Source: Escherichia coli (GTDB lineage Bacteria; Pseudomonadota; Gammaproteobacteria; Enterobacterales; Enterobacteriaceae). From it: 64,000 nucleotides of DNA. The stretch lies in the NCBI RefSeq assembly GCF_041886205.1, contig NZ_CP169029.1. One strand, 5' to 3'. The notes beneath the pieces are model-generated. The model did not search any database, had not been told where the DNA came from, and was given only the letters and a program-made list of their open reading frames with translations. Positions within the stretch are counted from its first letter, which is position 1. The number at the start of each line of letters is the position of its first letter. Positions 1 through 29,167 of this stretch are shown one piece after another. The translations under genes were made by a program, and so were the position numbers.

Positions 1-113
1 CATGAGCAGAAATGGGCAATGAAACACGGGCGACTATTTTGCGGCAAAAGAGGCCAGCCGCAAAAGCAGTGCGTGCTTTAAGAGATAAAAAAAACGTGAC
101 ACTGTAACCTATT

Positions 114-150: not shown

Positions 151-162
151 ATTACGGTGATC

Positions 163-777: not shown

Positions 778-819
778 TCCTAACATCCTGAAATGTGCGG
801 GTTGCCCCGCACCAATTTG

Positions 820-1674: not shown

Positions 1675-1675
1675 T

Positions 1676-2293
1676 TTACACTTCCTCCGGATTAGCCAGA
1701 TAACCAGTGGTATCGCCGGTCGGGCGGCTGTTGGCGTTAGGTTTGATAACGATATTGGGTTTTGTGAAATGCGCGCGCGGCAGTGGCGCGACGGCAGCAA
1801 GAGTGCCGTGCTTCTGGCGCAGCTCTTCAATTGGACCGAACTCAAGTGCACGCAGCGGGCAGGATTCGACACATATGGGTTGTTTCCCCTCGGCGACGCG
1901 CGAATAACAACCATCGCACTTCGTCATGTGCCCTTTTTCAGCATTGTACTGTGGCGCGCCGTACGGACAAGCCATGTGGCAGTAGCGGCAGCCGATACAA
2001 ACATCTTCATCAACCACCACAAAGCCATCTTCACGCTTATGCATTGCGCCGCTGGGGCAGACTTTTGTACATGCGGGGTCATCGCAATGGTTACAGGAGA
2101 TGGAGAGATAATAAGCGAACACGTTCTGGTGCCAGACGCCATTATCTTCCTGCCAGTCGCCGCCAGCGTATTCATAAATACGGCGGAAACTGACTTCCGG
2201 GCCAAGATCTTTAAAATCTTTGCACGCCAGTTCGCAGGTTTTACAGCCAGTACAGCGGCTGGAATCGATAAAAAATCCATATTGTGTGGTCAT
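1676..2293 (-). CDS. ynfG: 4Fe-4S ferredoxin-type electron-transfer subunit (DmsB family)
   Basis: 205 aa with four Cys-rich Fe-S cluster motifs (CTGCKTCELAC, CNHCDDPAC, CIGCRYCHMAC, CDGC...C). Confidence 0.9.
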   Translation of the reverse strand: MTTQYGFFIDSSRCTGCKTCELACKDFKDLGPEVSFRRIYEYAGGDWQEDNGVWHQNVFAYYLSISCNHCDDPACTKVCPSGAMHKREDGFVVVDEDVCIGCRYCHMACPYGAPQYNAEKGHMTKCDGCYSRVAEGKQPICVESCPLRALEFGPIEELRQKHGTLAAVAPLPRAHFTKPNIVIKPNANSRPTGDTTGYLANPEEV

Positions 2294-2303
2294 GGGCTAC
2301 TCC

Positions 2304-4727: not shown

Positions 4728-4787
4728 CATTACTCACTTATTGCTTTTCAAACAAAATGTCATGCCAGAATTTATGGTTGTAGTGGG

Positions 4788-7214: not shown

Positions 7215-7313
7215 AACTCACTCCCTGTTCTTTATCGTTATATAAAAGTTTATATATTGAATATTTAGCGCGCTAACAATAGAGGGAGTCTACCCATTTT
7301 GGGTTAAGAATTA

Positions 7314-7327
7314 TTAATCCATATCAA
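7314..7327 (-). promoter_or_regulatory. candidate FNR site (TTGAT-N4-ATTAA on operon strand) about 105 bp upstream of ynfE
   Basis: Near-consensus FNR half-sites at the right distance for an anaerobic operon; only one half-site is perfect. Confidence 0.3.
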
Positions 7328-7412
7328 TAGAAGGGTATGAGTAATAAGGTGGGATTATGTTGTATGTTCAAATCGCCGGATTTGTCATATCCGGCGTTCA
7401 GTCGATAATGTG

Positions 7413-7718
7413 TTACTGCGGTTCGGCAGGCGCGCCATCCTGGCTAGACTGCGCGGGAGCAGAGACGTTACCGCTGGTGGTGCGGGTATAGAGAATTTTA
7501 TGCGTATCATTAGCGCAATGGCCGACGACCTGGGAATCAGGCTGATCAACCTGGTCATTGGGTACAATACTTAACGTGAAGCTGCTTTCGGGTACGCCAT
7601 TATTGATAATGCGCTGTGATATATCGCTCTGTATGCGCTCACAGGATCCCGGCGCGGCGAGTACCGCGGGTGAGGCGAGGGCGAGCAGAAGCGCGGCACA
7701 GCAGGTTGAGAGTTTCAT
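7413..7718 (-). CDS. ynfD: small secreted protein YnfD
   Basis: Track ORF 115 aa; start placed at MKLSTCCAALLLALASPAVLAAP (signal peptide), giving 101 aa. Confidence 0.7.
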   Translation of the reverse strand: MKLSTCCAALLLALASPAVLAAPGSCERIQSDISQRIINNGVPESSFTLSIVPNDQVDQPDSQVVGHCANDTHKILYTRTTSGNVSAPAQSSQDGAPAEPQ

Positions 7719-7825
7719 CATAAGCTCCTTACGCGAAGATAACTTCTTTAAGCATAGCATTTAACGTGTAAAGTACTGTATTTGCTACTATGATTGAGAA
7801 TCATCTCTACTCTCTGGTGACTGTT

Positions 7826-8536
7826 GTGAAATACAAATTACTACCATGCTTACTCGCGATATTCCTCACAGGATGTGACCGCACAGAGGTAACACTTTCA
7901 TTTACCCCTGAGATGGCCAGTTTCTCTAATGAATTCGATTTTGATCCGCTGCGTGGTCCGGTAAAAGATTTCACTCAGACATTAATGGATGAGCAAGGTG
8001 AAGTGACGAAACGTGTTTCTGGGACTTTGTCGGAAGAAGGCTGTTTTGATTCACTCGAATTACTGGATCTGGAAAATAATACCGTGGTCGCTCTGGTACT
8101 GGACGCCAATTATTACCGTGATGCCGAGACGCTGGAGAAGAGAGTACGTTTACAGGGAAAATGCCAGCTAGCAGAATTACCTTCTGCCGGGGTGAGTTGG
8201 GAAACCGATGATAATGGCTTCGTGATTAAAGCCAGCAGCAAACAAATGCAGATGGAATATCGCTATGATGATCAGGGTTATCCGCTGGGTAAAACCACGA
8301 AAAGTAACGACAAAACATTATCTGTCAGCGCCACGCCATCAACGGATCCGATCAAAAAATTAGATTACACAGCGGTTACTTTACTGAATAATCAACGGGT
8401 TGGTAATGTAAAACAGAGCTGTGAATATGACAGTCACGCTAATCCGGTGGACTGTCAGCTAATCATTGTTGATGAAGGAGTAAAACCCGCCGTCGAACGG
8501 GTTTACACCATCAAAAATACGATCGATTATTATTAA
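7826..8536 (+). CDS. ynfC: lipoprotein YnfC
   Basis: Lipobox LTGC near N-terminus; GTG at 7826 gives 236 aa; the ATG at 7790 is an alternative start. Confidence 0.7.
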   Translation: MKYKLLPCLLAIFLTGCDRTEVTLSFTPEMASFSNEFDFDPLRGPVKDFTQTLMDEQGEVTKRVSGTLSEEGCFDSLELLDLENNTVVALVLDANYYRDAETLEKRVRLQGKCQLAELPSAGVSWETDDNGFVIKASSKQMQMEYRYDDQGYPLGKTTKSNDKTLSVSATPSTDPIKKLDYTAVTLLNNQRVGNVKQSCEYDSHANPVDCQLIIVDEGVKPAVERVYTIKNTIDYY

Positions 8537-8538
8537 TG

Positions 8539-9099
8539 CTATTGTGCGGTCGGCTTCAGGAGAGTCTGACCCGGTGTTTTGTGCTCTGCCAGATACTGAT
8601 GCTGGAATATACACATGCGAATGGCATTACGATATTGACCATTAATAAAGAACTCGTGCATCAATTCACCTTCAACCGAAAAGCCAAGCTTGCGGTAAAT
8701 GTGAATCGCTTTTTCATTCTCTTTATCAACGATCAGATACAGCTTATAGAGATTGAGAACGGTGAAGCCATAGTCCATTGCTAATTTGGCGGCACGGGTT
8801 GCCAGACCTTTCCCCTGATACTCCGGGGAGATAATTATCTGAAATTCTGCGCGGCGATGAACATGGTTAATTTCCACCAGCTCCACCAGACCGGCTTTTT
8901 CGCCGTCACATTCCACCACAAAGCGCCGTTCGCTCTGATCGTGAATATGCTTATCATACAGATCAGAGAGTTCAACAAAGGCTTCGTAGGGTTCCTCAAA
9001 CCAGTAACGCATCACACTGGCGTTATTGTCGAGTTGATGTACATAGCGTAAATCTTCACGCTCCAGCGGGCGTAGCTTAACACTGTGGGCGCTTGGCAT
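8539..9099 (-). CDS. speG: spermidine N1-acetyltransferase
   Basis: 186 aa GNAT-family protein ([26 protein letters not shown]...), recognised as SpeG. Confidence 0.9.
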
Positions 9100-9133
9100 A
9101 ACGTGTCCTTACATTCCTTAAATCAATAACAGG

Positions 9134-9475
9134 TTAGGGGGTAATAACGCGGCCAGTTCGACGGTCCAGGCAGCGCAAAGTATTTGGCTCCCAGTAGGCA
9201 TTGATGTTGGCGCTTTGCTCGCATTTATCGCGGTTATCAAAAGCGGCGTCGGCTTTATCCCACTCTTTTTCAGTGCGTTTATTCACTTTCTGGCGCAGAT
9301 TGCGCGTGTCATTCCATTGCTCTTTTTCCATAGCGGCGTGCTGGCGACTTTGTGCACTGTCGCCAGACTCAATCACCAGTTTGTTAGTTTCGGCATGAAC
9401 AGTTGTGCTCAATGCCAGTGCGCAAGGCAGCAGAAAAGCGAGCAGGCCGATTCGTTTGCTGAGAGTGATTTTCAT
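9134..9475 (-). CDS. ynfB: secreted/membrane protein YnfB
   Basis: 113 aa with N-terminal signal peptide; position between speG and ynfA. Confidence 0.7.
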
Positions 9476-9609
9476 AATTCATTCCCTGTATGAATGATTA
9501 AAGGTGATTCTACACCATCCACTGCGAACGCAAAACGTACCAGGTGGGTGTTTATATTGATGATATTATGTCGCCCTATAACTATACATGATGTCAATAA
9601 GTGACAAAG

Positions 9610-9936
9610 ATGATTAAAACAACGTTACTATTTTTTGCTACTGCGCTGTGTGAAATTATTGGATGCTTTCTGCCCTGGTTGTGGTTAAAACGAAACGCCA
9701 GTATCTGGCTGTTGCTTCCGGCGGGGATTTCACTGGCGCTGTTTGTCTGGTTGTTAACGTTGCATCCAGCGGCGAGTGGGCGTGTTTACGCGGCTTATGG
9801 TGGCGTTTATGTCTGCACGGCGTTGATGTGGCTGCGCGTTGTGGATGGCGTGAAACTGACTCTTTATGACTGGACGGGTGCGTTGATTGCGCTTTGCGGC
9901 ATGTTGATCATTGTTGCGGGCTGGGGGCGCACGTAG
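9610..9936 (+). CDS. ynfA: small inner-membrane protein YnfA
   Basis: 108 aa from MIKTTLLFF...; four predicted TM segments. Confidence 0.75.
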
Positions 9937-10043
9937 GAACATAAATCCATTTTATCAATAAGATAAGAGGAAGTGTCAGCTGACAAAAGGTATTCTATTT
10001 CATCTTTTGTCAACCATTCACAGCGCAAATATACGCTTTTTTT

Positions 10044-10051
10044 GTGATCAC
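10044..10051. promoter_or_regulatory. palindrome GTGATCAC about 90 bp upstream of rspA; candidate GntR-family (YdfH) operator
   Basis: Perfect 8-bp palindrome of GT-N4-AC type in the rspA promoter region; the GntR-family gene ydfH lies nearby. Confidence 0.25.
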
Positions 10052-10140
10052 TCCGGCTTTTTTCAATCTTCATACTTGTATGGTAGTAGCTCAGATGCGT
10101 AGATTTCATGCATCACGACAAGCGATGCAAGGAATCGAAC

Positions 10141-11355
10141 ATGAAGATCGTAAAGGCTGAAGTTTTTGTTACCTGTCCGGGGCGTAATTTCGTCACATTA
10201 AAAATCACCACTGAGGACGGTATTACGGGCCTTGGGGATGCCACCCTCAATGGACGTGAGCTTTCCGTGGCCTCTTATTTGCAGGATCACCTTTGTCCGC
10301 AGCTTATTGGTCGCGATGCGCACCGTATCGAAGATATCTGGCAGTTTTTCTATAAAGGTGCTTACTGGCGTCGCGGTCCGGTTACGATGTCGGCCATTTC
10401 AGCGGTTGATATGGCGCTGTGGGATATTAAAGCCAAAGCTGCCAACATGCCGCTTTACCAGTTACTCGGCGGCGCGTCTCGTGAAGGGGTGATGGTTTAT
10501 TGCCATACCACCGGTCACAGTATTGATGAAGCTCTGGATGATTATGCCCGTCATCAGGAGCTGGGATTCAAAGCCATCCGCGTGCAGTGCGGAATCCCTG
10601 GTATGAAAACCACCTACGGCATGTCGAAAGGTAAAGGTCTGGCTTATGAACCCGCAACCAAAGGACAGTGGCCGGAAGAGCAGCTGTGGTCGACGGAGAA
10701 ATACCTCGATTTCATGCCGAAATTGTTTGACGCGGTACGTAACAAGTTTGGTTTTAATGAACATTTGCTGCATGACATGCACCATCGCTTAACGCCTATT
10801 GAAGCGGCGCGCTTTGGTAAAAGCATTGAAGATTATCGCATGTTCTGGATGGAAGACCCGACGCCTGCGGAAAACCAGGAATGCTTCCGTCTCATTCGCC
10901 AACATACCGTCACACCCATCGCAGTGGGTGAAGTCTTCAACAGCATCTGGGACTGCAAACAACTGATTGAAGAGCAACTCATCGATTATATCCGCACCAC
11001 GCTGACCCATGCAGGCGGAATTACCGGTATGCGCCGGATTGCCGATTTTGCTTCGCTGTATCAGGTACGTACTGGCTCACACGGTCCTTCCGATTTGTCA
11101 CCAGTCTGCATGGCTGCGGCGCTGCACTTTGATCTGTGGGTCCCCAATTTCGGTGTCCAGGAATACATGGGTTATTCCGAACAAATGCTCGAAGTCTTCC
11201 CGCACAACTGGACTTTCGATAACGGCTATATGCATCCGGGAGACAAACCGGGTCTTGGTATCGAATTCGATGAAAAGCTGGCGGCGAAATATCCCTATGA
11301 ACCTGCTTATCTACCAGTCGCACGTCTGGAAGATGGCACGCTGTGGAACTGGTAA
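10141..11355 (+). CDS. rspA: enolase-superfamily mannonate dehydratase / starvation-sensing protein
   Basis: 404 aa from [24 protein letters not shown]...; RBS AAGGAA upstream. Confidence 0.85.
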
Positions 11356-11366
11356 GGAGTAAGATA

Positions 11367-12386
11367 ATGAAAAGCATATTAATTGAAAAACCGAATCAAC
11401 TGGCGATTGTCGAACGTGAAATACCCACCCCGTCAGCGGGTGAAGTACGAGTAAAAGTGAAACTTGCCGGAATTTGTGGTTCAGATAGCCATATTTATCG
11501 TGGGCATAATCCTTTTGCGAAATATCCGCGCGTCATTGGTCATGAATTCTTTGGCGTCATTGATGCAGTGGGTGAAGGCGTGGAAAGCGCCAGAGTCGGT
11601 GAACGTGTTGCTGTCGATCCGGTGGTCAGCTGTGGGCATTGCTATCCGTGCTCTATAGGTAAACCGAACGTTTGTACGACACTGGCTGTATTAGGTGTGC
11701 ACGCTGACGGTGGTTTCAGTGAATATGCCGTGGTTCCGGCAAAAAATGCGTGGAAAATTCCTGAAGCAGTGGCCGATCAATATGCGGTAATGATCGAACC
11801 TTTTACCATTGCGGCTAACGTAACCGGACATGGTCAACCGACTGAAAATGATACCGTTCTGGTTTATGGTGCCGGTCCAATCGGCCTGACGATCGTTCAG
11901 GTATTAAAAGGCGTCTATAACGTTAAAAATGTGATTGTTGCCGATCGCATTGATGAACGACTGGAAAAAGCGAAAGAGAGCGGGGCTGACTGGGCGATTA
12001 ATAACAGCCAGACACCGCTTGGCGAGATTTTCACTGAAAAAGACATCAAGCCGACATTAATTATCGATGCGGCTTGTCATCCTTCTATCCTGAAAGAGGC
12101 CGTAACGCTGGCTTCTCCAGCGGCACGTATTGTATTGATGGGCTTCTCCAGTGAACCGTCTGAAGTGATTCAGCAAGGAATTACCGGAAAAGAACTCTCT
12201 ATTTTCTCTTCACGCTTAAATGCAAATAAATTCCCGGTCGTTATCGACTGGTTAAGTAAAGGGTTAATTAAACCAGAAAAATTAATTACCCATACGTTTG
12301 ATTTCCAGCATGTTGCTGATGCCATTAGTTTATTTGAACAGGATCAAAAGCATTGCTGCAAAGTCTTACTCACTTTTTCTGAATAA
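11367..12386 (+). CDS. rspB: Zn-dependent alcohol dehydrogenase-family oxidoreductase
   Basis: 339 aa from MKSILIEKPNQL...; GHEFFG and GAGPIG motifs; RBS GGTAAGGAG. Confidence 0.85.
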   Translation: MKSILIEKPNQLAIVEREIPTPSAGEVRVKVKLAGICGSDSHIYRGHNPFAKYPRVIGHEFFGVIDAVGEGVESARVGERVAVDPVVSCGHCYPCSIGKPNVCTTLAVLGVHADGGFSEYAVVPAKNAWKIPEAVADQYAVMIEPFTIAANVTGHGQPTENDTVLVYGAGPIGLTIVQVLKGVYNVKNVIVADRIDERLEKAKESGADWAINNSQTPLGEIFTEKDIKPTLIIDAACHPSILKEAVTLASPAARIVLMGFSSEPSEVIQQGITGKELSIFSSRLNANKFPVVIDWLSKGLIKPEKLITHTFDFQHVADAISLFEQDQKHCCKVLLTFSE

Positions 12387-12443
12387 TACTAATAACGGCG
12401 AGTAAGTAGTACGCATCTTACCTCTTTTTTAGAGATAACCATT

Positions 12444-12536
12444 ATGACAATAGAAAAACACGAAAGAAGCACTAAGGATTTGGTGAAAGCAGCAGTATCG
12501 GGATGGCTGGGCACTGCGCTTGAATTTATGGATTTC
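12444..12536 (+). pseudogene. ydfJ: 5' fragment of ydfJ (MFS transporter) cut by prophage insertion
   Basis: MTIEKHERSTKDLVKAAVSGWLGTALEFMDF then diverges; the rest of the protein resumes in frame at 36643 (MDFQLYSLGAA...). Confidence 0.7.
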
Positions 12537-12573
12537 AAGAGTCATACGTGTCAACTATTTGATAAATATTAAA

Positions 12574-13869
12574 TTAATTTTTCATTGCTTCGTTATGGGG
12601 CATGGTTGGGGCAAACTCGCTTAACTGTGTATTTAACAAAGCTACCTGTGCATTATTGTTTTCAGACATCCATTTTCCGTATACCTGAAATACCATTTGC
12701 GCATCTGCATGGCCCATCTGGTTTGCTATAAATGCCGGGTTAGCACCAGCTGTCAGCGACCAGCAGGCATAAGTATGTCTCGACTGATATGATTTTCGAT
12801 GGCGGAGTCCGGCACGTTTTATCGCTGCGTCCCACATCTGCCTTATTGAGTCAACGGTAAAATGGTCACCATAATTTTTTACTCTCGCTGACACTTCAGG
12901 TTGAAAAACAAAGGTGCATTTATGTTTTTCTGTTCTGCCATACTCTCTGAGGTGAACATCAATGATATGCTCTTTGCTCAGTCTCGTTAATGTCATCTGA
13001 CTCCGGAGAGCGTCGATTGCTGGCTTAATAAGATGAATGACCCGATTGGTTCCCGCCTGTGTTTTTGGGACCGTGAAACGGTCTTTTGCTAAATTTCTCC
13101 TGATCATCATTGTTCCATTTTTCAGATCTATGTCCTCCCATCCAAGTGCACACAGCTCACCAGGGCGAACGCCAGTATAAACAGAAACACACCATAAATT
13201 TTTGGCTTGCTGATTTCTGCACGCATCGATAAGACGGATGAATTCCTCCCGCGAAAGAGGATCCGGAATGGTTCTTGATTCCTTTAATGGCGAGATCCCC
13301 TTAAACGGGTTATCTGCCAGGTAACCGTTATCAACACCAAACTGGAACACGGCGTTAAGATTTGTCATGTAATTATTTACAGTTACAGCCGATCTCCCTG
13401 GTTGTGTAACAATATAGTTACTTTTGGGGATCTGGTATCCAGTCAGTAGCTCTTTACGAACCTCCAGTAATTTTTCTTTATTAATCGATGAGGCAAGATT
13501 TTTTTCACCGATTATGCTCAGGATATTTTTGATGACGGCACGGTATGTGTTGAGTGATGTTTTGGCGACTTCAGTTTCTTTCAGTGCCAGAAATTTTTCA
13601 GCCAGTTCTTTTATGGTTAAATCTTGTCGGGCCTCACCAAATTTTTCCAGATTGCGTGAGGAGGGAAACTGTTTTGCATAGTCGAAAACACCAGTTTTTA
13701 TTGCGTAACAAACAGAGGAGCGTAGTTCACCTGCAACGCGCCTGTTTTTTGCTGTGTCAGGAACCCCCAGATTTTCCCTGACTCTTACGCCTTTATAAAC
13801 AAACCAGATACGTAATTTCCCTCCATGGTTTTCCACGCCTGTCGGATATTTCATTTCAACTTCTCTCAT
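12574..13869 (-). CDS. phage tyrosine integrase
   Basis: 431 aa; C-terminal catalytic region with R...HxxR...Y signature (RHTYACWSL...); located at the att junction. Confidence 0.9.
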   Translation of the reverse strand: MREVEMKYPTGVENHGGKLRIWFVYKGVRVRENLGVPDTAKNRRVAGELRSSVCYAIKTGVFDYAKQFPSSRNLEKFGEARQDLTIKELAEKFLALKETEVAKTSLNTYRAVIKNILSIIGEKNLASSINKEKLLEVRKELLTGYQIPKSNYIVTQPGRSAVTVNNYMTNLNAVFQFGVDNGYLADNPFKGISPLKESRTIPDPLSREEFIRLIDACRNQQAKNLWCVSVYTGVRPGELCALGWEDIDLKNGTMMIRRNLAKDRFTVPKTQAGTNRVIHLIKPAIDALRSQMTLTRLSKEHIIDVHLREYGRTEKHKCTFVFQPEVSARVKNYGDHFTVDSIRQMWDAAIKRAGLRHRKSYQSRHTYACWSLTAGANPAFIANQMGHADAQMVFQVYGKWMSENNNAQVALLNTQLSEFAPTMPHNEAMKN

Positions 13870-13888
13870 TAGTTAGTGTGGCTTTTAG

Positions 13889-14140
13889 TCAAGTAAGATG
13901 ACGTCTTGGTCTTGCTGATGCCTGGCGCTCAATCCAGCGATCAATTTCTTCCAGGTTGTAAAAGCATGGACTGTTATCCCATGGCATACCGTCATGAGCG
14001 ACATGCTTATATTCCCTTCCTTCCATAAACGATTTTTCCCGGGCCTTTTTTAACGTACCTTTTTTTATTCCTTTCAGCGCAATTAACTGCTCTTCGGATA
14101 CCCATTTGCCGGGAGAGACAATCATGATTACTTCGCTCAT
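13889..14140 (-). CDS. excisionase-like protein
   Basis: 83 aa; KWVSEEQLIALKGIKKGTL...GREYKHV pattern typical of lambdoid excisionase-like proteins; directly upstream of int. Confidence 0.6.
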   Translation of the reverse strand: MSEVIMIVSPGKWVSEEQLIALKGIKKGTLKKAREKSFMEGREYKHVAHDGMPWDNSPCFYNLEEIDRWIERQASARPRRHLT

Positions 14141-15989
14141 CGATTTCTTTATCTCTTACATCAGACGAGCGCCGGTTGCAGAATACCAGTCACAACCGGC
14201 GACAGTTGAACATTAAGAATCAGCCTGACTCGGGATCAGTTTTTGCCAGATAGCTGAAACGTATTTTGCCTGGTAACGGGCGTCATCAAGTGCATTATGG
14301 CGCTCACCTTCGAATGGAATAGCCGTTCTGGCATCGAAGTCTATGGCTTTCCCCAGCTCAACGATTGTGCGTACATCGCGATCGTTGTAGTAACGCCACG
14401 GGCAGGGGATCCCCTGCCGTTCGTATGAACGGCGCAAAATCGTGTTGTCGAAGTTGGCTCCATTTCCCCAGACATGAACAAAAAATTCACCGGAGTTTTC
14501 GTCGATAAATTCCCGCAATTGTAACAGTGCATCATCTAACGGGATTTCATCGGTCATAATGGCAGATTGCGCTTCGCGTGATTGTTTAAGCCACCATTTA
14601 ATGGTGTCCCGATCAATGACTCCGCCAGCAGTTTCCAGATCGATAGTCTTACTAAATTCCGGTCCCATATCTCCGGTTTGCGGATCGAAAAATATTGCAC
14701 CTATTGAGATAATCGGGGCATCGGGATTTTTTCCCATGGTTTCAAGGTCGATCATCAGATGAATCCCCGCTCTGCTGGTGGATGTGAGATTATGATGACC
14801 GTTTGCCTTAATTAAGGGATCTGACGCCTCGCCAGTTTCACTATCGCTGGCATGATGCTGATTGCCGCCAGTGTTCTCCTTGTGCTGATGCGCAGTGCCT
14901 TCTATTTCCTCCGGATCATTTTCCTGAACTTCAGGCTGATTCTCTCCATCGAATATTTCCTGGTATGTTGCGTCACCCATCACCGCACCACAATCAGGGC
15001 AGTTGCCGCCACCGCTCTGACCGCAGGCGGTGCAGATCTTTTCCGGTTCCTGTTGCACTACTGGTTCAGGTTGTTTCGTTTCTGGCTCGTTTTGTTGCAT
15101 ATTTGGGCTGTTTTGTTCCGCTTTCTGGTCGTTCTGTTCCGTTTCTTGCTGGTTCTGGTTCACAGAATCGCGGGTCTGGATCCCCTTAATCCATTTCGGA
15201 TCATTCGGGTCGCTAATCCCTTCAACAAATTCACCACGTGATACTGCAAGCAGTTCATCGGCGTCAGGCTGGCTGATATTGGCTGCCTGCATAATTTTGT
15301 TTACTTCGTCAGCGGTAACTTTTACTGACCCTGGTTGTGCGGTCGTGTCAGATGCACCAGTATTTTGTTGTGAACCTGAGTATGTACCGTTTTTGCGGGC
15401 GAAATATTCTTCTTTCGTGATTTCAGTAGCCCCAGCAGACAGCGCCTTATCCAGACCAGAAAGTTTATTTGCGCGACCGTATTTTTCGCCATCCTTGTCG
15501 GTGAAGAGGAAGTAGAACGGCCCCTCACGTTCTACAGATGGTTCGACTTCCACTTTGCATTCGGTTTTTTCGTTGTCTGGAATTGCCGTTTCCACTGCAT
15601 CAGTTTCTGGTACTGGCGACGAGAGAGTATCAGTTGCGCTCTGATTTGTTCCTTCATCTTCAAACACGCCCTTTGTAGTCAGGTATTCAGTAATGTATTT
15701 GTTCAGTGCCACAGGGTCTTTGTGAATGTCGATCGGACGTTCACGGACAAGGCCAAAAATAGTCTGGCGGTCGTAGCGAAGGGCATCAGGCTGTTTGCGC
15801 ATTGATGCCGAGATACGCTTCCAGTCTTCGCGGTCGTTGTCGATAACTTCATTTTTTGCCCAGCGATGGATGCTGCCGTCAATGTTTCCGGCATCCACAT
15901 CACCAGGCCAGAGAGCGTAGGCCAGTTCGTCATCCTGAACCGCCCCGGGAATCCTGGAGACTAAACTTCCTGAGAAAGAGGTAAACAGG

Positions 15990-16316
15990 ATGACTAAAAA
16001 TACTCGTTTTTCCCCCGAAGTCCGTCAACGGGCAGTCCGTATGGTTCTGGAAAGTCAGAGCGAATATGACTCACAATGGGCGACAATTTGTTCCATTGCT
16101 CCAAAGATTGGCTGTACGCCGGAGACTCTGCGTGTCTGGGTTCGCCAGCATGAGCGGGATACCGGGGGCGGTGATGGAGGGCTCACCACCGCTGAACGTC
16201 AGCGTCTGAAAGAGCTGGAACGTGAAAATCGTGAACTGCGCCGCAGTAACGATATCCTTCGCCAGGCTTCCGCTTATTTTGCGAAGGCGGAGTTCGACCG
16301 CCTCTGGAAAAAATGA
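15990..16316 (+). CDS. IS3-family transposase OrfA (HTH)
   Basis: 108 aa [21 protein letters not shown]...; leucine-zipper-like C-terminus. Confidence 0.85.
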
Positions 16317-17203
16317 TGCCACTGCTGGATAAGCTGCGTGAGCAGTACGGGGTCGGACCGCTATGCAGCGAACTGCATATTGCCCCGTCAACGTATTACC
16401 ACTGTCAGCAACAGCGACATCATCCGGATAAACGCAGTGCCCGTGCGCAGCGCGATGACTGGCTGAAGAAAGAGATACAGCGCGTATACGATGAAAATCA
16501 CAAGGTATACGGTGTGCGTAAAGTCTGGCGTCAGTTGTTACGGGAAGGTATCAGAGTGGCCAGATGCACTGTGGCACGTCTCATGGCGGTTATGGGACTT
16601 GCCGGTGTTCTCCGGGGTAAAAAGGTCCGTACGACCATCAGCCGGAAAGCCGTTGCCGCAGGCGACCGCGTAAACCGTCAGTTCGTGGCAGAACGACCTG
16701 ACCAGCTGTGGGTGGCTGATTTTACTTACGTCAGCACATGGCGGGGCTTCGTCTATGTGGCGTTCATCATTGATGTGTTTGCCGGATACATCGTGGGGTG
16801 GCGGGTCTCATCGTCCATGGAAACGACATTCGTGCTGGATGCACTGGAGCAGGCGTTATGGGCCCGTCGACCGTCCGGCACGGTCCATCACAGTGATAAA
16901 GGTTCTCAGTATGTATCGCTGGCCTACACACAGCGGCTTAAGGAAGCCGGATTACTGGCATCAACAGGAAGTACAGGCGACTCGTATGACAACGCGATGG
17001 CGGAGAGCATCAATGGTCTTTACAAAGCGGAGGTAATACACCGTAAGAGCTGGAAAAACCGTGCAGAAGTGGAACTGGCCACACTCACGTGGGTGGACTG
17101 GTATAACAATCGACGATTGCTGGAAAGGCTGGGCCATACTCCTCCGGCAGAAGCAGAAAAAGCTTATTATGCTTCCATCGGAAACGATGATCTGGCAGCC
17201 TGA
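16313..17203 (+). CDS. IS3-family transposase OrfB (DDE integrase core)
   Basis: 296 aa with rve-type DDE domain; overlaps orfA in -1 frame. Confidence 0.85.
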
Positions 17204-18017
17204 GTTCACAGATAAAACACTCTCCAGGAAACCCGGGGCGGTTCATCCAGTGTTTTCCATGTCTGCTTGTATTCGCGATGAATGGCAGCAATGACCGGGT
17301 TGATTTTTCCTGTTGAATTTTCAGTGTGCTGTTGATTGGCTCTGGCACGGGCGAGATCAACAACAGACGTGTATTTTCCGGCTTCCTTGCGTTCACCTTC
17401 GCGACGTTTTTTCCAGATGCGCATCTCTGCCTGAATTTCGGGCCATTTGGCACCAGGCTTACATTTATGCTTAACCCACCCGATGGCATGCAGCTTAAGC
17501 TCCGGATACATAGCGTTAACTTCTGGCATTTTCATCAACGCTTCAACGATATGGCCGTCGAATGTTGCCATGTCTTCCTGCAACAATTCCTGTGCGCTAA
17601 TCACCATATCAACAGTGATGTTTTCACATGTGTCGAACTTAACCATGACAGCGTTCTGTACTTCAGGGGCTAGGTTGTCAAAAGTGACGTTCATCGGATC
17701 GGATTCAGTCTCGACCGGGACAAAGGAAGCAGACGCCTCATCCCAGCGGTTTTCCTGCATATATTCAGCATCCCAGGAATCGAGGGCAGGGCGGGGTATA
17801 CCGGGTTTATCCTCGCAAACAAGAAATTTATAAGCGCAGTCCTGAGCAGCCGGATAATGTTCCAGGAATTGCCAGTGAAATTTTGCGCGGGCGCGACGTT
17901 CATCACCGGCTTCAATGGCAGTGGCTACAGTGAGACGAACTTCGCCGTGCGCTTTCGTGTTGTGTGCCTGCTTTTAACCACGTCAGGCGAGGTGGTATCC
18001 TTAAAATCACCACAGTT

Positions 18018-18593
18018 TTAAGGATTCATTAAGCAATGTCGCAACCACCAATAAATCCGCTTAAGAACATGAAAATTGATTACTGGTATAAAGCGCTTAC
18101 AGTTGTTGGCGCTGCGTTGTTTGTCTTTAATGGAACGTCTTTTTTTGACAGATATCCCGTTGTTCCATTGGATTTTTTGTCCTCCGGCATCTTTTTTATT
18201 GGTTTGGGGGAGTGGATTAATCACCCTCTCAAAGTGAGATTTATTGGTCCTGGAGTTTGGACTCGTGGATATAATCGTTCTTAGTGCGCACTCGGTATCA
18301 TCTTCGACATACTTGGTTGTTTCCTGATTGTTACAGGAGTCGTCAAGTTCTTCTGATGTAAAACCGCAAATGGGGCACGTAACGGGAATTTTGAAAAGCG
18401 TTTCTCCGGGTTCCAGAACAAAATTTTCTGCGGTCTGATTTTGCTTCTCATATTTGTGCTCCGCGTCATTGTGAGAGCACATTCTTATTCTGAGTGCCTG
18501 TTTAAACTCACTGAAGCTGAGAGCTTCTTCGCCTTCGGCAAGACCTTCGAAGTATTCTTCGTAAGCCTTTTCCATGATTGTGTCGAAATCCAT
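18018..18593 (-). CDS. hypothetical phage early protein; C-terminal half doubtful
   Basis: Start at MDFDTIMEKAYEEYF...; first ~110 aa look protein-like, the rest is K/R-rich low complexity and overlaps a plausible plus-strand ORF. Confidence 0.35.
   Translation of the reverse strand: MDFDTIMEKAYEEYFEGLAEGEEALSFSEFKQALRIRMCSHNDAEHKYEKQNQTAENFVLEPGETLFKIPVTCPICGFTSEELDDSCNNQETTKYVEDDTECALRTIISTSPNSRTNKSHFERVINPLPQTNKKDAGGQKIQWNNGISVKKRRSIKDKQRSANNCKRFIPVINFHVLKRIYWWLRHCLMNP
18036..18284 (+). CDS. hypothetical small membrane protein (two predicted TM helices)
   Basis: 82 aa with hydrophobic segments ALTVVGAALFVF and SGIFFIGLGEWI; RBS AAGGA upstream; lies antisense within the 18018-18593 ORF. 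Confidence 0.3.
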   Translation: MSQPPINPLKNMKIDYWYKALTVVGAALFVFNGTSFFDRYPVVPLDFLSSGIFFIGLGEWINHPLKVRFIGPGVWTRGYNRS

Positions 18594-18594
18594 A

Positions 18595-18831
18595 TCACTC
18601 ACCTGAGTTTCTTTCCAGCCAGCGACGGGCACCATTTTCGGTTTTAAACGTTTTGCTTTTGGTATACGTCATCGCGGTGAACGTACCGTCCTGGTTGGGG
18701 AACACGCCACATACCGGAGATTCGCTGTTGCCAAGATCGATAGTATCCATGCTGACCTCATTTCCCCTTAACGCCGGGGTAGCGGAACAAAAACCTGCTG
18801 CATAGTTATTAAAGTTGAACCCTGCCGTCAT
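18595..18831 (-). CDS. hypothetical phage early protein
   Basis: 78 aa ORF; stop overlaps next start (TGAtATG arrangement), suggesting translational coupling. Confidence 0.4.
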   Translation of the reverse strand: MTAGFNFNNYAAGFCSATPALRGNEVSMDTIDLGNSESPVCGVFPNQDGTFTAMTYTKSKTFKTENGARRWLERNSGE

Positions 18832-19047
18832 GTTCTTACGCCTCGGGCTGGCTACTTAACCCCTGACCACTGCCTGGTAACTCGAAGTATTGCCCTGCAT
18901 TCTGTGGGGCGGGGTGGGTGGCAGGCATATAATGTACTTTGCGTTCATTGTTGTAAAGTACTTTTAGTACATTTTGTGTGTAAAAAAATGAGATGGGATA
19001 AAGTGAAGCACAAACCCGGAGGAAGGCGCTACCGGATTTATGCTGGT

Positions 19048-19467
19048 TTAAGAGGCTTTTTGTTTTTTCTTTCGTGCTAACTCTTCGTAAATTGCATTGT
19101 ACTTCTGTTTTTTCTCTTCAAGAGTTTTTAAAAGTTCATCTGTCTCACTGTCAGGGAGCTCGTCCAGAAGGTCAATGATGATTTTTTGTCTTGGATTTAA
19201 CTCCTGATAGAAACGTACCTGTCCACTTTCTTCTGTATCCTCTCCCAAAAGATAGGTTGGTGTTGTTCCTATTAGTGTTGCTAATTCCCTTAATTTCTCC
19301 CGGCGAGGAATTGTTTCGCCATTAAACCATTTGCTAACCGCTTTTGGTGTTAATTTCATTCGACGGGCAATTTCTGCCTGCCTTCCATGTTGTTCATAAC
19401 CAGCGTTTTCACAGGCTAGCGCAAGCCTACTGGCGAACTCTTTACGCGCTTTATCTTCATGAACCAT
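19048..19467 (-). CDS. prophage repressor, XRE-family HTH (RacR/DicA-like)
   Basis: 139 aa; HTH QAEIARRMKLTPKAVSKWFNGETIP; divergent from a Cro-like gene. Confidence 0.7.
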   Translation of the reverse strand: MVHEDKARKEFASRLALACENAGYEQHGRQAEIARRMKLTPKAVSKWFNGETIPRREKLRELATLIGTTPTYLLGEDTEESGQVRFYQELNPRQKIIIDLLDELPDSETDELLKTLEEKKQKYNAIYEELARKKKQKAS

Positions 19468-19546
19468 AAGTTCAATGATATTCGCTCTTGAATGTACTGT
19501 CAGTTCTGTTATAGCATGTACTCAAAGTTCACACTGTGAGGGTGAT
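19468..19546. promoter_or_regulatory. divergent immunity promoter/operator region
   Basis: 79-bp intergenic region between repressor and Cro-like gene; direct repeats TGTACT at 19493-19498 and 19517-19522. Confidence 0.4.
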
Positions 19547-19801
19547 ATGAACCAGAAAACACTTGAAGATGTAATCAAAACTGTTCGCGTTGCTGTTGTG
19601 GCCGACGTTTGTGGTGTCAGCCAAAGAGCAATCTATAAATGGATGGATAACGGAAAATTGCCTCGCACAGAATATACCGGCGAAACAAATTACGCTGAAA
19701 AAATCGCTCTTGCATCAAACGGATTATTTTCTGCCGATGCAATTTTAACTATTGGCAGGAATAAAACTACTACGAAAAAGCTGATGGGAGTTGATTCATG
19801 A
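19547..19801 (+). CDS. Cro-like / YdaS-like small DNA-binding protein
   Basis: 84 aa from MNQKTLEDVIKT...; RBS GAGGG; position opposite the repressor. Confidence 0.55.
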   Translation: MNQKTLEDVIKTVRVAVVADVCGVSQRAIYKWMDNGKLPRTEYTGETNYAEKIALASNGLFSADAILTIGRNKTTTKKLMGVDS

Positions 19802-20223
19802 AAATCAAGCATGAACACATCCGCATGGCGATGAATGCCTGGGCGCATCCGGACGGCGAAAAAGTACCGGCTGCGAAAATTACCAAAGCGTATTTCGAGC
19901 TGGGAATGACGTTCCCGGAACTGTATGACGACAGCCATCCGGAAGCCCTGGCTCGCAATACTCAGAAAATTTTCCGCTGGGTGGAGAAAGACACCCCTGA
20001 TGCGGTTAAAAAAATTCAGGCGTTGTTACCAGCTATCGAAAAAGCAATGCCACCTCTGCTGGTGGCCCGAATGCGCAGTCATAGCTCAGCCTATTTTCGG
20101 GAACTAGTGGAGACGCGGGAACGACTGGTGAGAGACGCTGATGATTTTGTCGCAGTGGCGATCGCTGGTTTCAACCAGATGAATCGTGGTGGCCCTGCAG
20201 GAAATATTGTGGTTGTGCATTGA
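19798..20223 (+). CDS. YdaT-like protein
   Basis: 141 aa starting MKIKHEHI..., third gene of a RacR-YdaS-YdaT-type module; overlaps upstream stop. Confidence 0.5.
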   Translation: MKIKHEHIRMAMNAWAHPDGEKVPAAKITKAYFELGMTFPELYDDSHPEALARNTQKIFRWVEKDTPDAVKKIQALLPAIEKAMPPLLVARMRSHSSAYFRELVETRERLVRDADDFVAVAIAGFNQMNRGGPAGNIVVVH

Positions 20224-20288
20224 CTCGCAATATTCATACCGGATCACTTCCGGCAATTTGTGAGTAAAAAGATTCGGTATCAAAAGAG

Positions 20289-21365
20289 GTGAGTATGGCT
20301 AACGCCTGGCTCAGATTATGGCATGACATGCCAAATGACCCTAAGTGGCGAACAATTGCCAGGGTGTCAGGGCAGCCAATTGCAACAGTGATGGCAGTGT
20401 ATATCCACCTCTTGGTGAGCGCGTCACGAAATGTCACGCGAGGTCACATTGATGTCACGACAGAAGATTTGGCAAGTGCGCTCGACGTGACAGAAGAGGT
20501 AATTGATTCAATTTTGCAGACGATGCAGGGGCGGGTACTTGATGGTGATTTAATCACTGGATGGGAAAAACGCCAGGTGCTTAAAGAGGACAACGGCAAT
20601 ATTTCGCAAACCGCAAAATCTCCTGCAGAGCGCAAGAGGGCGCAGCGAGAGAGGGAAAGAAAGCGGGAACAAAATGGCGATTGTCACGGCGCGTCACGAA
20701 ATGTCACGCACATGTCACGACGAGTCACGACAGATAAAGATACAGATAAAGATACAGATCAAGAAGATCAAAACACTATGGTCCATGGCGTAAAAAACGC
20801 CACGAACCAGGCAGGGGATGTTCAGACCGTCAATCTTGGTCAGCCAGCAGGCACGACACCGGAAGCCGATTCAGCGTATGCGCTGAAAGCCGATTCGGGC
20901 GCTGTGCAGCAGGTGATGACCGCAAGGCCGGAGCAATCACACCAACTGCAGCAGCCCGAAGCCGATTCCGCCATTCAGCGGGAAGCCGATCGGGTAGTCC
21001 CGGAAAACACCGGGCAGTCTGTGGGACGAGTGGATTATCCGGATGTGTTCGAACAGGTCTGGCGGGAGTACCCGTTGCGTGCCGGAGCAAACCCGAAGAA
21101 ATCCGCTTTCAGTGCCTGGAAGGCCAGATTACGCGAGGGGGTGCCACCAGAGGCCATGCTGGATGGCGTGAGGCGTTACGCAAGATACTTGGCGGCTACC
21201 GGGAAAACGGGAACGGAATTTGTTCAGCGAGCGACGACGTTTTTTGGACCGGACCGGAATTTTGAGAACTCCTGGTTGCTCCCGGTAAGCGGCACGAACA
21301 ACCAGCGTTGTGTGAATCATATTTCTGAACCGGATAACGAAATTCCGCCGGGCTTCAGGGGGTAA
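20289..21365 (+). CDS. phage replication initiator / replisome organiser, O-like
   Basis: 358 aa; N-terminal WLRLWHDMPNDPKW motif; the coding sequence contains iterons; GTG start with RBS. Confidence 0.6.
   Translation: MSMANAWLRLWHDMPNDPKWRTIARVSGQPIATVMAVYIHLLVSASRNVTRGHIDVTTEDLASALDVTEEVIDSILQTMQGRVLDGDLITGWEKRQVLKEDNGNISQTAKSPAERKRAQRERERKREQNGDCHGASRNVTHMSRRVTTDKDTDKDTDQEDQNTMVHGVKNATNQAGDVQTVNLGQPAGTTPEADSAYALKADSGAVQQVMTARPEQSHQLQQPEADSAIQREADRVVPENTGQSVGRVDYPDVFEQVWREYPLRAGANPKKSAFSAWKARLREGVPPEAMLDGVRRYARYLAATGKTGTEFVQRATTFFGPDRNFENSWLLPVSGTNNQRCVNHISEPDNEIPPGFRG
20423..20765 (+). repeat. putative replication origin: nine GTCAC(G/A) iterons in two clusters plus an AT-rich tandem repeat
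   Basis: Iterons at 20423, 20433, 20443, 20454 and 20683, 20693, 20703, 20714, 20724 (10-11 bp spacing); then GATACAGATAAA x2.5. Confidence 0.5.
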
Positions 21366-21405
21366 GTGTTAATTTCTGGTCATGAGGTAATTTTCAGGAG
21401 GGCTT

Positions 21406-21828
21406 GTGGCAAAAGTTTTTACACAAGAAGAGCGGGAAAAAATTAAAGGGCAGGTTGTTGAACTCGTACGCCAGAGTGGGCGCGAGACGTTAAGACAACT
21501 GGAAACTAAAACTGGGGCAACAAAATATATGATGAACGTTCTGGCCAGAGAGCTGGTTGCCAGTGGCGATGTATACAACTCTGGTTACGGGTTATTCCCG
21601 TCTGAACAGGCGCGTAAGGACTGGCAAAATGCCCGTAAAAAGCTCTCAAGGGCAAAGCTGAAGAAACCATCTGCGGTTGATCCGGACCTTATCTGGTCAT
21701 TACCTGATGGAGAAATACGTCGTTACGACAGGCGTCATAATATGATTTGTACTGAGTGTCGTAAAAGCGAAGTTATGCAGCGCATATTGTCGTTTTATCA
21801 GGGGGATGTTCGGTATTTATTGAAGTGA
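21406..21828 (+). CDS. hypothetical phage protein
   Basis: 140 aa; GTG start 6 nt after AGGAGG; contains C-x2-C. Confidence 0.45.
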   Translation: MAKVFTQEEREKIKGQVVELVRQSGRETLRQLETKTGATKYMMNVLARELVASGDVYNSGYGLFPSEQARKDWQNARKKLSRAKLKKPSAVDPDLIWSLPDGEIRRYDRRHNMICTECRKSEVMQRILSFYQGDVRYLLK

Positions 21829-22223
21829 CGAGATTAAAGTGCATTAGTTCAGATGCAAATTGACATTTTGTGGCACAGGGTAGAGCTAGCGTGGTTGTCC
21901 GCTTTGTGCCAACAGCGGACATTATGGAAGGTCAGAGTTAAAGATTAAAATGGGATGCTGTGTGTTTTCTCCAGGTTTTGCTCTATACCTTTCGGGATAC
22001 TCCACCGACAGAATACGAAAATCAACATTATCAACGGCTCGAAGTGTCTAGATTATCCATGGCAATTCATGGGAAATCCCATCCAACGGCTTATGCTTCA
22101 TGTTGCTTTTTGAGATCGCTTCTAGCATAGCTCCACTCAATAATGTTGTCGGGTCGTTGCTGATCGAAAAGGATACGGGATTCAATACCATTACCTAAAA
22201 AGCTGGTACCGGAACTCGGGCTG

Positions 22224-23228
22224 GTGGTCGTTAAGCCGGGCCGTGAATCCATGCCGGTATTCCACAATACCCGGGTACTGGTGGAGCCGGAACCGAAAAG
22301 CATGCGTAATCTGCCGTCCGGGGTCGTTCCTGCCGTTCGCCAGCCGCTGGTGGAAGACAAAACATTGCTGCCGTTTTTCAGTAACGCACGGGTAATTCGT
22401 GCTGCTGGTGGTGCTGGTGCATTGTCTGACTGGCTGTTGCGCCATATTAAATCCTGCCAGTGGCCACACGGCGATTATCATCACAGCGAAACCGTTATTC
22501 ACCGATATGGTACCGGCGCAATGGTGTTGTGCTGGCACTGCGACAACCAGCTGCGTGACCAGACATCCGAATCACTCGAGCAACTTGCTCATCAAAACCT
22601 GTCAGCATGGATGATTGACGTCATCGGTCACGCAATAAGCGGTACGCAGGAGCGTGAATTATCTCTGGCTGAATTATCCTGGTGGGCGGTCCGCAATCAG
22701 CTGGCGGACGCGCTACCGGAAGCGGTATTACGTCGCTCGCTGGGATTACCAGCGGAAAAAATCTGCTCGGTGTACCGCGAAAGCGACATCGTACCGGGAG
22801 AGCAGACCGCCACCAGCATATTGAAACAGCGCACAAAAAATCTTGCACCGTTGCCTCACGCCCACCAGCAACAAAACCCATCACAGGAAAAGACGGTGGT
22901 AAGCATCACCGTTGATCCAGAGTCTCCGGAATCTTTCATGAAGCTGCCTAAACGTCACCGGTGGGTTAAGGAGAAATACACACGCTGGGTTAAGACACAG
23001 CCGTGTGCTTGCTGCGGTATGCCAGCCGACGATCCGCATCATCTGATTGGTCACGGGCAGGGCGGAATGGGAACCAAAGCACATGATCTCTTTGTTTTGC
23101 CTTTGTGCAGAAAGCATCACGACGAGTTGCATACGGATACCGTGGCATTTGAAGAGAAGTATGGCTCCCAACTGGAGCTGATTTTTCGATTTATCGATCG
23201 CGCGCTGGCAATTGGTGTGCTGGCCTAA
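22224..23228 (+). CDS. DUF968-type protein with C-terminal HNH-like motif (YdfU/NinG-like)
   Basis: 334 aa; C-terminus [21 protein letters not shown]...[10 protein letters not shown]; directly upstream of Q. Confidence 0.6.
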
Positions 23229-28320: not shown

Positions 28321-28683
28321 GGTAATATTAAATCGGAACATTTACATCGCGGAATGTAAAATTTAAATAAAAAGGACTCTTCCATGAGCCAAAATTCCTG
28401 AAATCTTAAGGGTAAGATAAAAGGTCTTAATCAGAATGACACGTTATTATTAATAAATAAAGCTATTCTTTCATTGCTGTGTTTTTCTTTACAAAAGTAA
28501 TCCTTGCTATGGGTGGTTAATCATGCGTTAATGGTGTTCTGGTTTGTTACAAATTTATCTGAAGCAGTCATTGTTATAATTTTATTATTTGTACCTCTTG
28601 AGATTTCCTTGTTGGTTTTTCTCTCTGATATTTTTTTTCGGACCATTCTGCCCAAGGGCTAATTTCTTCAAAAGGTAATAATT

Positions 28684-28896
28684 ATGTCTAACAAAATGAC
28701 TGGTTTAGTGAAATGGTTTAACCCTGAAAAAGGTTTTGGTTTCATCACGCCGAAAGATGGCAGCAAAGATGTGTTTGTCCATTTCTCAGCAATTCAGAGC
28801 AACGATTTCAAAACATTAACTGAGAATCAGGAAGTTGAATTTGGTATTGAGAACGGACCTAAAGGTCCTGCCGCTGTTCATGTAGTGGCGCTTTGA
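28684..28896 (+). CDS. cspI: cold-shock protein (CspA family)
   Basis: 70 aa [23 protein letters not shown]...; long upstream leader typical of csp genes. Confidence 0.9.
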
Positions 28897-29167
28897 GGTA
28901 GACAATATTACAAACCATATTCACTTTAGATGCCCGTGTTGTCATGGTTCCCAGTATAGAACATCATCTTTTGATGTTTCTGACATGAATCCTTTCGGGG
29001 CAAAATGTATCTTTTGTAAATCAATGATGATTACATTTGATAATATTTCACAATACTTAAATGCCAGCCGTCTGTCGTTGGATTTAAAAAAGTGAAAATG
29101 AAGGCTCCTTCGGGAGTTTTTTTGCTTGGTATCTATTCGATGGATACTCACATACTACGGTAACATC

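Follow-up and report, generated by a model that had tools for sequence, protein, structure and literature searches.

An IS629-type element in the exonuclease gene of a Qin-type prophage of Escherichia coli and a separate loss of the start of the same gene

The window analysed here, a stretch of 64,000 nucleotides from Escherichia coli (contig NZ_CP169029.1), carries an IS629-type insertion sequence inside a prophage exonuclease gene. The account that we consider very probable is that transposition placed an intact IS629 within the exonuclease gene of an eroding Qin-type prophage, and that a separate microhomology-mediated deletion took away the start of that gene. No evidence contradicting the insertion itself was found. 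The features concerned are collected in Table 1.

Table 1. Features at the interrupted exonuclease locus (positions of the window)
Feature	Position	Strand	Basis or remark
IS629-type insertion sequence (IS3 family), apparently intact	15936..17245 (exactly 1310 bp)	+	TG...CA ends
IRL, left terminal inverted repeat	15936..15960	+	25-nt arm, 92% complementary with 17221-17245
IRR, right terminal inverted repeat	17221..17245	+	25 nt
orfA, 108 aa, HTH_Tnp_1	15990..16316	+	Pfam PF01527, E = 7.4e-13
orfB, 296 aa, with DDE/rve catalytic domain, frame offset -1 from orfA	16313..17203	+	Pfam
ALIL pseudoknot, stimulator of the -1 programmed frameshift for the OrfAB transposase	16271..16387	+	Rfam RF01497
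Target site duplication (TSD), left copy, TCC	15933..15935	.	Sequence; single TCC at the wlxctx60 empty site
TSD, right copy, TCC	17246..17248	.	Sequence; single TCC at the wlxctx60 empty site
Exonuclease 3' fragment (ydfE orthologue) with the whole DEDDh 3'-5' exonuclease domain	14213..15935	-	PF16473; colinear with strain 550
Exonuclease 5' fragment	17249..17933	-	Homologous to intact genes as far as the deletion junction
Deletion junction, 927-931 bp (~0.93 kb) lost, 8-bp microhomology TACAGTGA	17926..17933	.	blastn against strains 550 and TK3896
Prophage excisionase gene, directly downstream of the exonuclease	13889..14140	-	Orthologues annotated 'excisionase family protein' in 550 and wlxctx60
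Prophage tyrosine integrase adjoining rspB (Qin attachment side)	12574..13869	-	Orthologue annotation; K-12 Qin map

The element has the features of the IS3 family, for which a length of about 1.2-1.5 kb and a direct target duplication of 3-4 bp served as the yardstick: its length, its TG...CA ends, its imperfect inverted repeats, the -1 phase of orfB relative to orfA and its short target duplication all agree. The termini read TGAACCGCCCCGGG...CCCGGGGCGGTTCA, with the outermost bases TGAACC...GGTTCA, and base-by-base comparison showed 23 of the 25 positions of the inverted repeats to be complementary. The sequence-only reading, which had described a 1310-bp IS629-like element of this family with imperfect inverted repeats, was thus borne out. 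The exact protein sequence of orfA occurs in at least 1000 contigs of the protein collection. The orfB product matched rve (PF00665, E = 8.3e-28) and HTH_21 in Pfam and the NCBIfam model NF033516, 'IS3 family transposase', at 314.6 bits (cutoff 160). It is identical to NCBI entries AAN78635.1, AAN79736.1 and others, and members of its cluster carry the name 'IS629 transposase OrfB'.

The two reading frames, offset by -1, overlap over 16250-16316. The ALIL frameshift pseudoknot, first described in IS3411, was recovered over the full model (1-117) at 120.2 bits (gathering threshold 50; E = 1.2e-31). As the orfB frame is open from 16250, the shift must fall within 16250-16313, and the candidate slippery sites are a run of four T at 16277-16280 and a run of six A at 16308-16313. 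The intact reading frames, inverted repeats and frameshift signal, along with identical copies at many sites, suggest that this copy may be competent for transposition.

Other E. coli chromosomes, as well as plasmids, carry full-length copies 100% identical to the element. The copy in strain 550 is 99.92% identical, the plasmid copies of S. flexneri and S. dysenteriae are 99.1-99.3% identical, and a partial copy in H99, again 100% identical, bears the PGAP label 'IS629 family'. The ISfinder criterion for an IS629 isoform is roughly at least 95% nucleotide identity to the reference, and the copies compared here are proxies for that reference; all of them are consistent with the name IS629. Structurally there is no difference from IS629 of Shigella sonnei and its isoforms IS1203 and IS3411, as the 1310-bp length, TG...CA ends, -1 phase of orfA and orfB, ALIL element and 3-bp TSD are all shared. 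The O157:H7 copy labelled IS1203 by PGAP is 96.2% identical; its divergence of 3.8% fits the gap of 4-5% between IS629 sub-types, whose target duplications measure 3-4 bp (PMC3271280). The same paper places 62% of the O157 copies of IS629 in prophages or prophage-like elements.

The element had also been taken as a hint at a pathogenic strain background. This hint proved weak, and IS629 was rejected as such a marker: near-full-length copies are present in 3042 of the 5426 complete E. coli genomes, IS629-like repeats occupy a median of 4 places per genome having any, and the present copy resembles those of Shigella plasmids and generic E. coli, unlike the IS1203-labelled copy of O157. The nearest chromosome among those in the collection belongs to a bear-faeces isolate.

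The insertion site could be compared directly with its uninterrupted form. E. coli wlxctx60 is 100.0% identical to the window over positions 1-15935, and its empty site reads CGTAGGCCAGTTCGTCATCC|AGTGTTTTCC, with one TCC and no insertion sequence. Because a strain with an identical left side has a single TCC and no element, the 3-bp duplication proposed from the letters is real and not a chance repeat. Nor does the alignment with strains 550 and TK3896 show any gap at the site. The element interrupts the 823-codon gene at about codon 251 and lies on the opposite strand. Multi-copy repeats of this kind, present in many E. coli genomes, are well known for causing misassembly, so a collapsed copy misplaced inside the gene has to be considered; yet a misjoin would not create a perfect duplication of the target triplet around a full-length element with both inverted repeats, and such an artefact is barely conceivable.

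A search of the 5426 complete E. coli genomes found the junction of the element with the gene in none of them. This bears on another possible origin, namely that the element arrived by homologous recombination with a prophage exonuclease copy that already carried it. The gene is indeed multi-copy, with up to 10 matching places per E. coli genome, and IS629/IS1203 insertions are known in homologous exonuclease genes of O157, O111 and other strains. However, an element at this position was seen in no genome of the 5426; the nearest sites lie at distances of 40 bp and about 309 bp. Up to the very edge of the TSD the two flanks agree at 100% and 99.9% with relatives whose site is empty, and they contain no divergent recombination tract. 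Recombination is therefore an extremely improbable source. Transposition, by comparison, is the mechanism that we infer, and the insertion is probably recent, given the identical copies elsewhere, the perfect TSD and the absence of the junction from the complete genomes. The earlier description of a recent and precisely delimited event thus held, with an exact empty site now known.

In-silico excision of the element and one TCC joined 17760..17249 to 15935..14213 on the minus strand and gave an open reading frame of 2235 nt (744 codons plus stop) with no internal stop, as had been predicted; excision offsets that are not multiples of three led to early stops. The insertion itself does not preserve the frame, contrary to the original wording: it adds 1313 bp, which leaves a remainder of 2 on division by three, and only excision restores the frame. 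The identification of the target as a prophage exonuclease stood. The gene matches phrog_2082 'exonuclease', and residues 563-734 of the restored protein match the Rv2179c-like domain PF16473 (E = 7.9e-67; curated cutoff 27 bits). A match to PDB entry 8kel, 'Exodeoxyribonuclease', was weak (E = 6.6e-7).

If IS629 were the sole lesion, precise excision would regenerate a functional exonuclease gene of about 745 codons. The uninterrupted 744-codon frame begins with ATG and is 99% identical to the matching part of the strain 550 protein, as this would predict, but comparison with intact homologues speaks against it. Such colinear homologues do exist, as had been anticipated. The gene in strain 550 has a coding sequence of 2472 nt for 823 aa (WP_001474311.1, with which the 3' fragment is colinear), and the homologue of phage mEp460_ev081 is 98.9% identical over residues 1-823. 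Likewise, phrog_2082 covers residues 1-822 of the 823-aa protein, and homologues from prophages and isolated phages share this length and a conserved N-terminus. In the window, the first in-frame start of the 5' fragment is the ATG at 17760, which corresponds to Met80. The codons for residues 23-79 remain in frame ahead of it, no ATG, GTG or TTG occurs in frame between the upstream stop and 17760, and residues 1-22 are deleted together with upstream operon genes. Hence the ATG at 17760 is an internal methionine and not the start of the gene, so that the restored frame is not the whole gene it had been taken for. The sole-lesion reading is largely refuted, and we regard it as very unlikely.

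The missing 5' end is explained by the deletion at 17926-17933, which took exonuclease codons 1 to about 22 including the start codon, ydfD, dicB and the gene of the DicF sRNA. DicF is present in TK3896 and was not found in the window. The deletion junction, like that of the element, has no counterpart among the 5426 complete E. coli genomes, which makes both junctions lineage-specific. Deletion mediated by an insertion sequence was rejected, as no IS end is present at the junction, which shows an 8-bp microhomology; the nearby IS629 of strain 550 was likewise rejected as the cause, its site being empty in the window. With the start codon gone, the element is one of two lesions, and removing it would not by itself bring back the native gene. 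The original claim that the element inactivates the exonuclease is thus upheld insofar as the gene is split by it, but not insofar as it was held to be the only inactivating lesion. A third change in the prophage is a 3.8-kb deletion at 22203-22208.

As for the two fragments, the called upstream reading frame (17206-17760) runs 12 codons into the right end of the element and stops at 17206-17208. Its chimeric 184-aa product had no exact match in the protein collection, from which pseudogene products are often missing. In the downstream fragment, 561 codons stay open from the GTG at 15898 and include the whole catalytic domain; its expression is conceivable in principle. Promoter prediction gave no sigma-70-like site within 15700-18100, and hence no outward promoter to drive this fragment. 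Full-length colinearity from an intact start is lost, since residues 1 to about 22 are gone, no start precedes Met80 and the gene is split by the element. By these features the window copy is a pseudogene derived from the phrog_2082/YdfE family and not an intact member, and its exonuclease function has probably been lost.

The locus is the counterpart of the cryptic prophage Qin of K-12, and the exonuclease gene is the full-length counterpart of ydfE. The integrase gave weak hits to the tyrosine-recombinase models of NCBIfam. K-12 Qin occupies the same chromosomal site on the rspB side, with the same gene in the same order (dicB-ydfD-ydfE...int), and K-12 ydfE is 95.3% identical to positions 17243-17930 of the window. 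There, ydfE is broken by IS2E at a breakpoint 18 bp from the IS629 site. The K-12 gene carries a partial IS2 without TSD and has lost its whole 3' part including the nuclease domain, whereas the window has a complete IS629 in a simple insertion with TSD, keeps both halves and has lost the 5' end instead.

Insertions in the same gene family are also known from EHEC O157, O111 and other strains. Z1835/Z1836 of O157:H7, CV261 and OkiPb01680/01700 matched a query of gene plus element over nearly the same total span, 3546-3548 bp, which had hinted at one common insertion; alignment led to their rejection as same-site insertions, their elements lying at window-equivalent positions of about 15252 and 17288. 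Z1835 has IS1203 in the exonuclease of the ompW prophage, with the TSD AAC; the copy in OkiPb01680 lies 40 bp from the window site, and those of O111 strains about 309 bp from it. These cases represent the same type of event in the same gene family, but positions, prophages and IS sub-type differ. They are independent events with no shared ancestral insertion.

Further hits on the gene include another IS3-family element in TK3896, IS1F, and IS629-like/IS1203 copies at three or more other positions. It might be asked if ydfE-type exonuclease genes are a preferred, or positively selected, target for inactivation by insertion sequences. If so, the exonuclease might be costly to lysogens, or the region might attract IS3-family transposases. 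A spread sample of 60 records yielded 43 full-length hits; of these, 40 were uninterrupted 2472-bp pieces and 3 were interrupted by an insertion sequence, a proportion that is recurrent and not striking. A hotspot is therefore doubtful, and was set aside as a low-probability idea.

Taken in sequence, the favoured course of transposition followed by, or following, a separate deletion would be this. A copy of IS629, like those of Shigella plasmids and generic E. coli, would have entered a Qin-type lambdoid prophage near rspB, landing in its exonuclease gene. According to the established IS3-family model, a -1 frameshift would yield the OrfAB DDE transposase, which would act by copy-out/paste-in, and integration would have duplicated the 3-bp target TCC. 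The gene is thereby split into an upstream part that ends inside the element and a downstream part without a predicted promoter or native start. An independent microhomology-mediated deletion of about 0.93 kb would have removed the start, the first 22 or so codons, ydfD, dicB and dicF. The outcome is a doubly hit pseudogene in a prophage undergoing erosion, and the two lesions may have occurred in either order.

The finding is ordinary, already-known biology. What IS629 is, how it moves and that it tends to land in prophage genes is textbook knowledge and well documented, and the case matters little beyond annotation, where the two exonuclease reading frames and the insertion sequence should read as one pseudogene plus IS629. 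A native gene is not recovered by excising the element in silico, as the second lesion took the start along with dicF, dicB and ydfD. Strain typing could make use of the two lineage-specific junctions, one at 15935/15936 and one at 17926-17933, and the locus offers a clear example of the stepwise decay of a Qin-type cryptic prophage.

The 1310-bp IS3-family element with imperfect inverted repeats and a TCC duplication, described in the sequence-only reading, was confirmed, coordinates included (Table). Its 25-nt terminal inverted repeats are complementary at 23 of 25 positions, and the window holds a single copy, a 14-mer of the IS end being found once in 64 kb. Strain wlxctx60 matched window positions 1-15935 in a single piece at 100.0% identity and showed the empty site, ...GTTCGTCATCC|AGTGTTTTCC..., in which TCC occurs once and the IS is absent. 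Hence the TCC repeat is a true duplication rather than a chance repeat. Strains 550 and TK3896 also aligned without gaps over the insertion site. The IS lies opposite to the interrupted gene in orientation.

Coordinates of the features in the window and of comparable insertions elsewhere
Feature	Position	Strand	Details
Prophage integrase	12574-13869	-	
Prophage excisionase	13889-14140	-	
IS element	15936-17245		1310 bp; starts TGAACCGCCCCGGG, finishes CCCGGGGCGGTTCA
TCC target-site duplication	15933-15935 and 17246-17248		either side of IS
orfA	15990-16316	+	108 aa; HTH_Tnp_1 domain
orfB	16313-17203	+	296 aa; HTH_21 and rve DDE core; -1 phase
ALIL pseudoknot	16271-16387		Rfam RF01497, full-length; 120 bits (gathering score 50)
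Deletion junction	17926-17933		8-bp microhomology TACAGTGA; homology to intact gene breaks, jumps 927-931 bp
Second window deletion	22203-22208		about 3.77 kb relative to TK3896 (locus L005, 9899-13664); 6-bp microhomology CTGGTA
cspA-type thermoregulator 5'UTR	28538-28923		Rfam, 113 bits
IS009	34386-34584		Rfam, 221 bits
STnc560 Hfq-binding sRNA	45980-46193		Rfam, 282 bits
Independent insertions of ISs in exonuclease orthologues or paralogues	L001 4043-5352; L002 4765-6074; L005 1134-2385 (loci of other strains); H61-H65, H158, H162, H168 (database matches)		IS1203/IS629-like, other IS3-family, IS1F

OrfB scored 314.6 bits on the NCBIfam profile NF033516 'IS3 family transposase' (cutoff 160) and is identical in sequence to NCBI AAN78635.1 and AAN79736.1, among others; proteins named 'IS629 transposase OrfB', as well as 'Putative Transposase for IS629 [E. 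coli CFT073]', fall in the same 90% cluster. At the DNA level, 100%-identical copies reside on plasmids of E. coli and Salmonella as well as on the chromosomes of other E. coli; identity was 99.92% to the copy of strain 550, 99.1-99.3% to plasmid copies of S. flexneri and S. dysenteriae, and 96.2% to an O157:H7 copy labelled IS1203 by PGAP. According to Rump et al. (PMC3271280), IS629 sub-types differ by 4-5%, one being closest to the Shigella IS629; IS1203 and IS3411 are treated as IS629 isoforms; target duplications are 3-4 bp; and 62% of IS629 copies sit in prophages or prophage-like elements. All features of the element are consistent with IS629, and its near-identity to the Shigella plasmid copies suggests membership of the Shigella-like sub-type.

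By established IS3-family biology, a -1 frameshift would yield the OrfAB transposase, the IS would move by copy-out/paste-in via a circular intermediate, and 3-bp staggered cleavage of the target followed by repair would create the duplication. As the orfB frame is open from 16250, the fusion frameshift would have to fall within 16250-16313. The ALIL pseudoknot is known to stimulate -1 frameshifting.

The flanks of the IS belong to a lambdoid prophage integrated next to rspB, in which integrase, excisionase and the interrupted gene follow in this order on the minus strand. The cryptic prophage Qin of K-12 has the same position and gene order, the counterpart of the interrupted gene being the pseudogene ydfE (95.3% identical to window 17243-17930). 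The thermoregulator 5'UTR probably precedes the prophage cspI. The proposed target, a prophage exonuclease gene, was borne out, since the restored protein (after removal of the IS and one TCC) carries at its C-terminus a 3'-5' exonuclease domain of the Rv2179c-like DEDDh type (PF16473; residues 563-734, E = 7.9e-67) and the orthologue in strain 550 is matched along its entire length by phrog_2082 'exonuclease'. 'Exodeoxyribonuclease VIII' is the label that several phage records give to the entire protein, yet the C-terminal domain is all that Pfam found in it, and recE is about 81% identical to a 300-nt internal piece of the gene (nt 599-901 in strain 550, locus L003; H209-H211). These observations suggest a mosaic relationship, the label being a likely misannotation.

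In silico, removal of the IS and one TCC fused minus-strand 17760..17249 to 15935..14213 in one frame, close to the 745 codons expected: the restored ORF has 2235 nt, 744 codons plus stop, and no internal stop, while deletions that were not a multiple of three reached a stop after 171-248 codons. The insertion itself is not frame-preserving as had been stated. It adds 1313 bp, no multiple of three, and the upstream fragment reads 12 codons of the IS (EPPRVSWRVFYL) before a stop at 17206-17208. Nor is the restored ORF the intact gene. The colinear intact homologue has 823 aa, as in the strain 550 CDS (2472 nt), the phage mEp460_ev081 (98.9% across residues 1-823; sixteen more phage records are 80-90% identical) and the 823-position PHROG profile, and 40 of 43 full-length matches in a spread sample of complete genomes carry the 2472 bp as an uninterrupted piece. 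ATG 17760 corresponds to Met80 of this protein; residues 23-79 remain encoded in frame 5' of it, with no ATG, GTG or TTG between the upstream in-frame stop and ATG 17760. The sequence absent at the deletion junction (L003 5406-6336 in strain 550; L005 4689-5615 in TK3896) holds exonuclease codons 1 to about 22, ydfD, dicB and the DicF sRNA gene in relatives; Rfam detected DicF in TK3896 and not in the window. Nearby, a mechanical 205-aa ORF at 18018-18635 (minus strand), where the annotation of relatives shows only ydfA, ydfB and a hypothetical gene, all of them small, may be spurious.

The gene thus carries two independent lesions, so that IS excision would not regenerate it. The claim that the IS inactivates the exonuclease therefore stands only in part: the IS does split the gene, but is one of two lesions. 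Exonuclease function has presumably been lost. An ORF with an intact catalytic domain persists downstream of the IS, and no promoter was predicted in 15700-18100. Expression of xis and int from the early-left transcript may be affected by polarity.

Similar events were found in the same gene family. The breakpoint of K-12 ydfE::IS2E is 18 bp from the IS629 point of the window (5826-5844 in the MG1655 locus, L007, set against window 15917-15935), so two different ISs broke the same gene nearly at one spot in separate lineages. An O157:H7 prophage exonuclease carries IS1203 with the duplication AAC, TK3896 a different IS3-family element, and strain 300033 IS1F. In OkiPb01680 (L002 4753-6086), whose exonuclease gene is also annotated as frameshifted, an IS629-like copy 40 bp from the window site lacks a duplication, its flanks GGCAG|IS|CAATG being those of the uninterrupted sequence; IS-IS recombination or imprecise events may account for this. 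IS-interrupted copies made up 3 of the 43 full-length matches. IS hits recur in the exonuclease gene; the evidence for a hotspot is not convincing. This is a known element with known behaviour in a known kind of target, and the biology is already known.

The suggestion that IS629 hints at a pathogenic background did not hold. Of 5426 complete E. coli genomes, 3042 contain copies of the IS at 80% coverage or more, as do over 2000 plasmids, Shigella, Salmonella and Klebsiella being among their sources; the single window copy differs from the compared O157 IS1203-labelled type, and the chromosomes closest to the window come from commensal, ETEC-type or animal isolates. Hence the IS indicates no particular pathogenic lineage.

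As one piece, the IS-flank junction was found in none of the 5426 complete E. coli genomes; in the eight genomes where 80% or more of the junction query was covered, the match came in two pieces, the IS lying between 40 bp and several hundred bp off. Together with the perfect duplication and the 100%-identical copies elsewhere, this supports the recent, precisely delimited insertion proposed earlier, which would be lineage-specific. The deletion junction 17926-17933 was likewise absent from all 5426. Strain wlxctx60, a close relative of the whole window (99.96% over 31100-64000), has another, larger deletion of about 5.5 kb in the same prophage, which joins window 17599 to 23138 (L004 25285-25286), thereby fusing a ydfU (DUF968) fragment with the truncated exonuclease gene. 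Relative to TK3896, the deletion at 22203-22208 has cost the window itself an AbiH abortive-infection gene and hokD, along with one small hypothetical gene and the greater part of another. On these comparisons, each lineage shows its own, independent decay of the Qin-type prophage.
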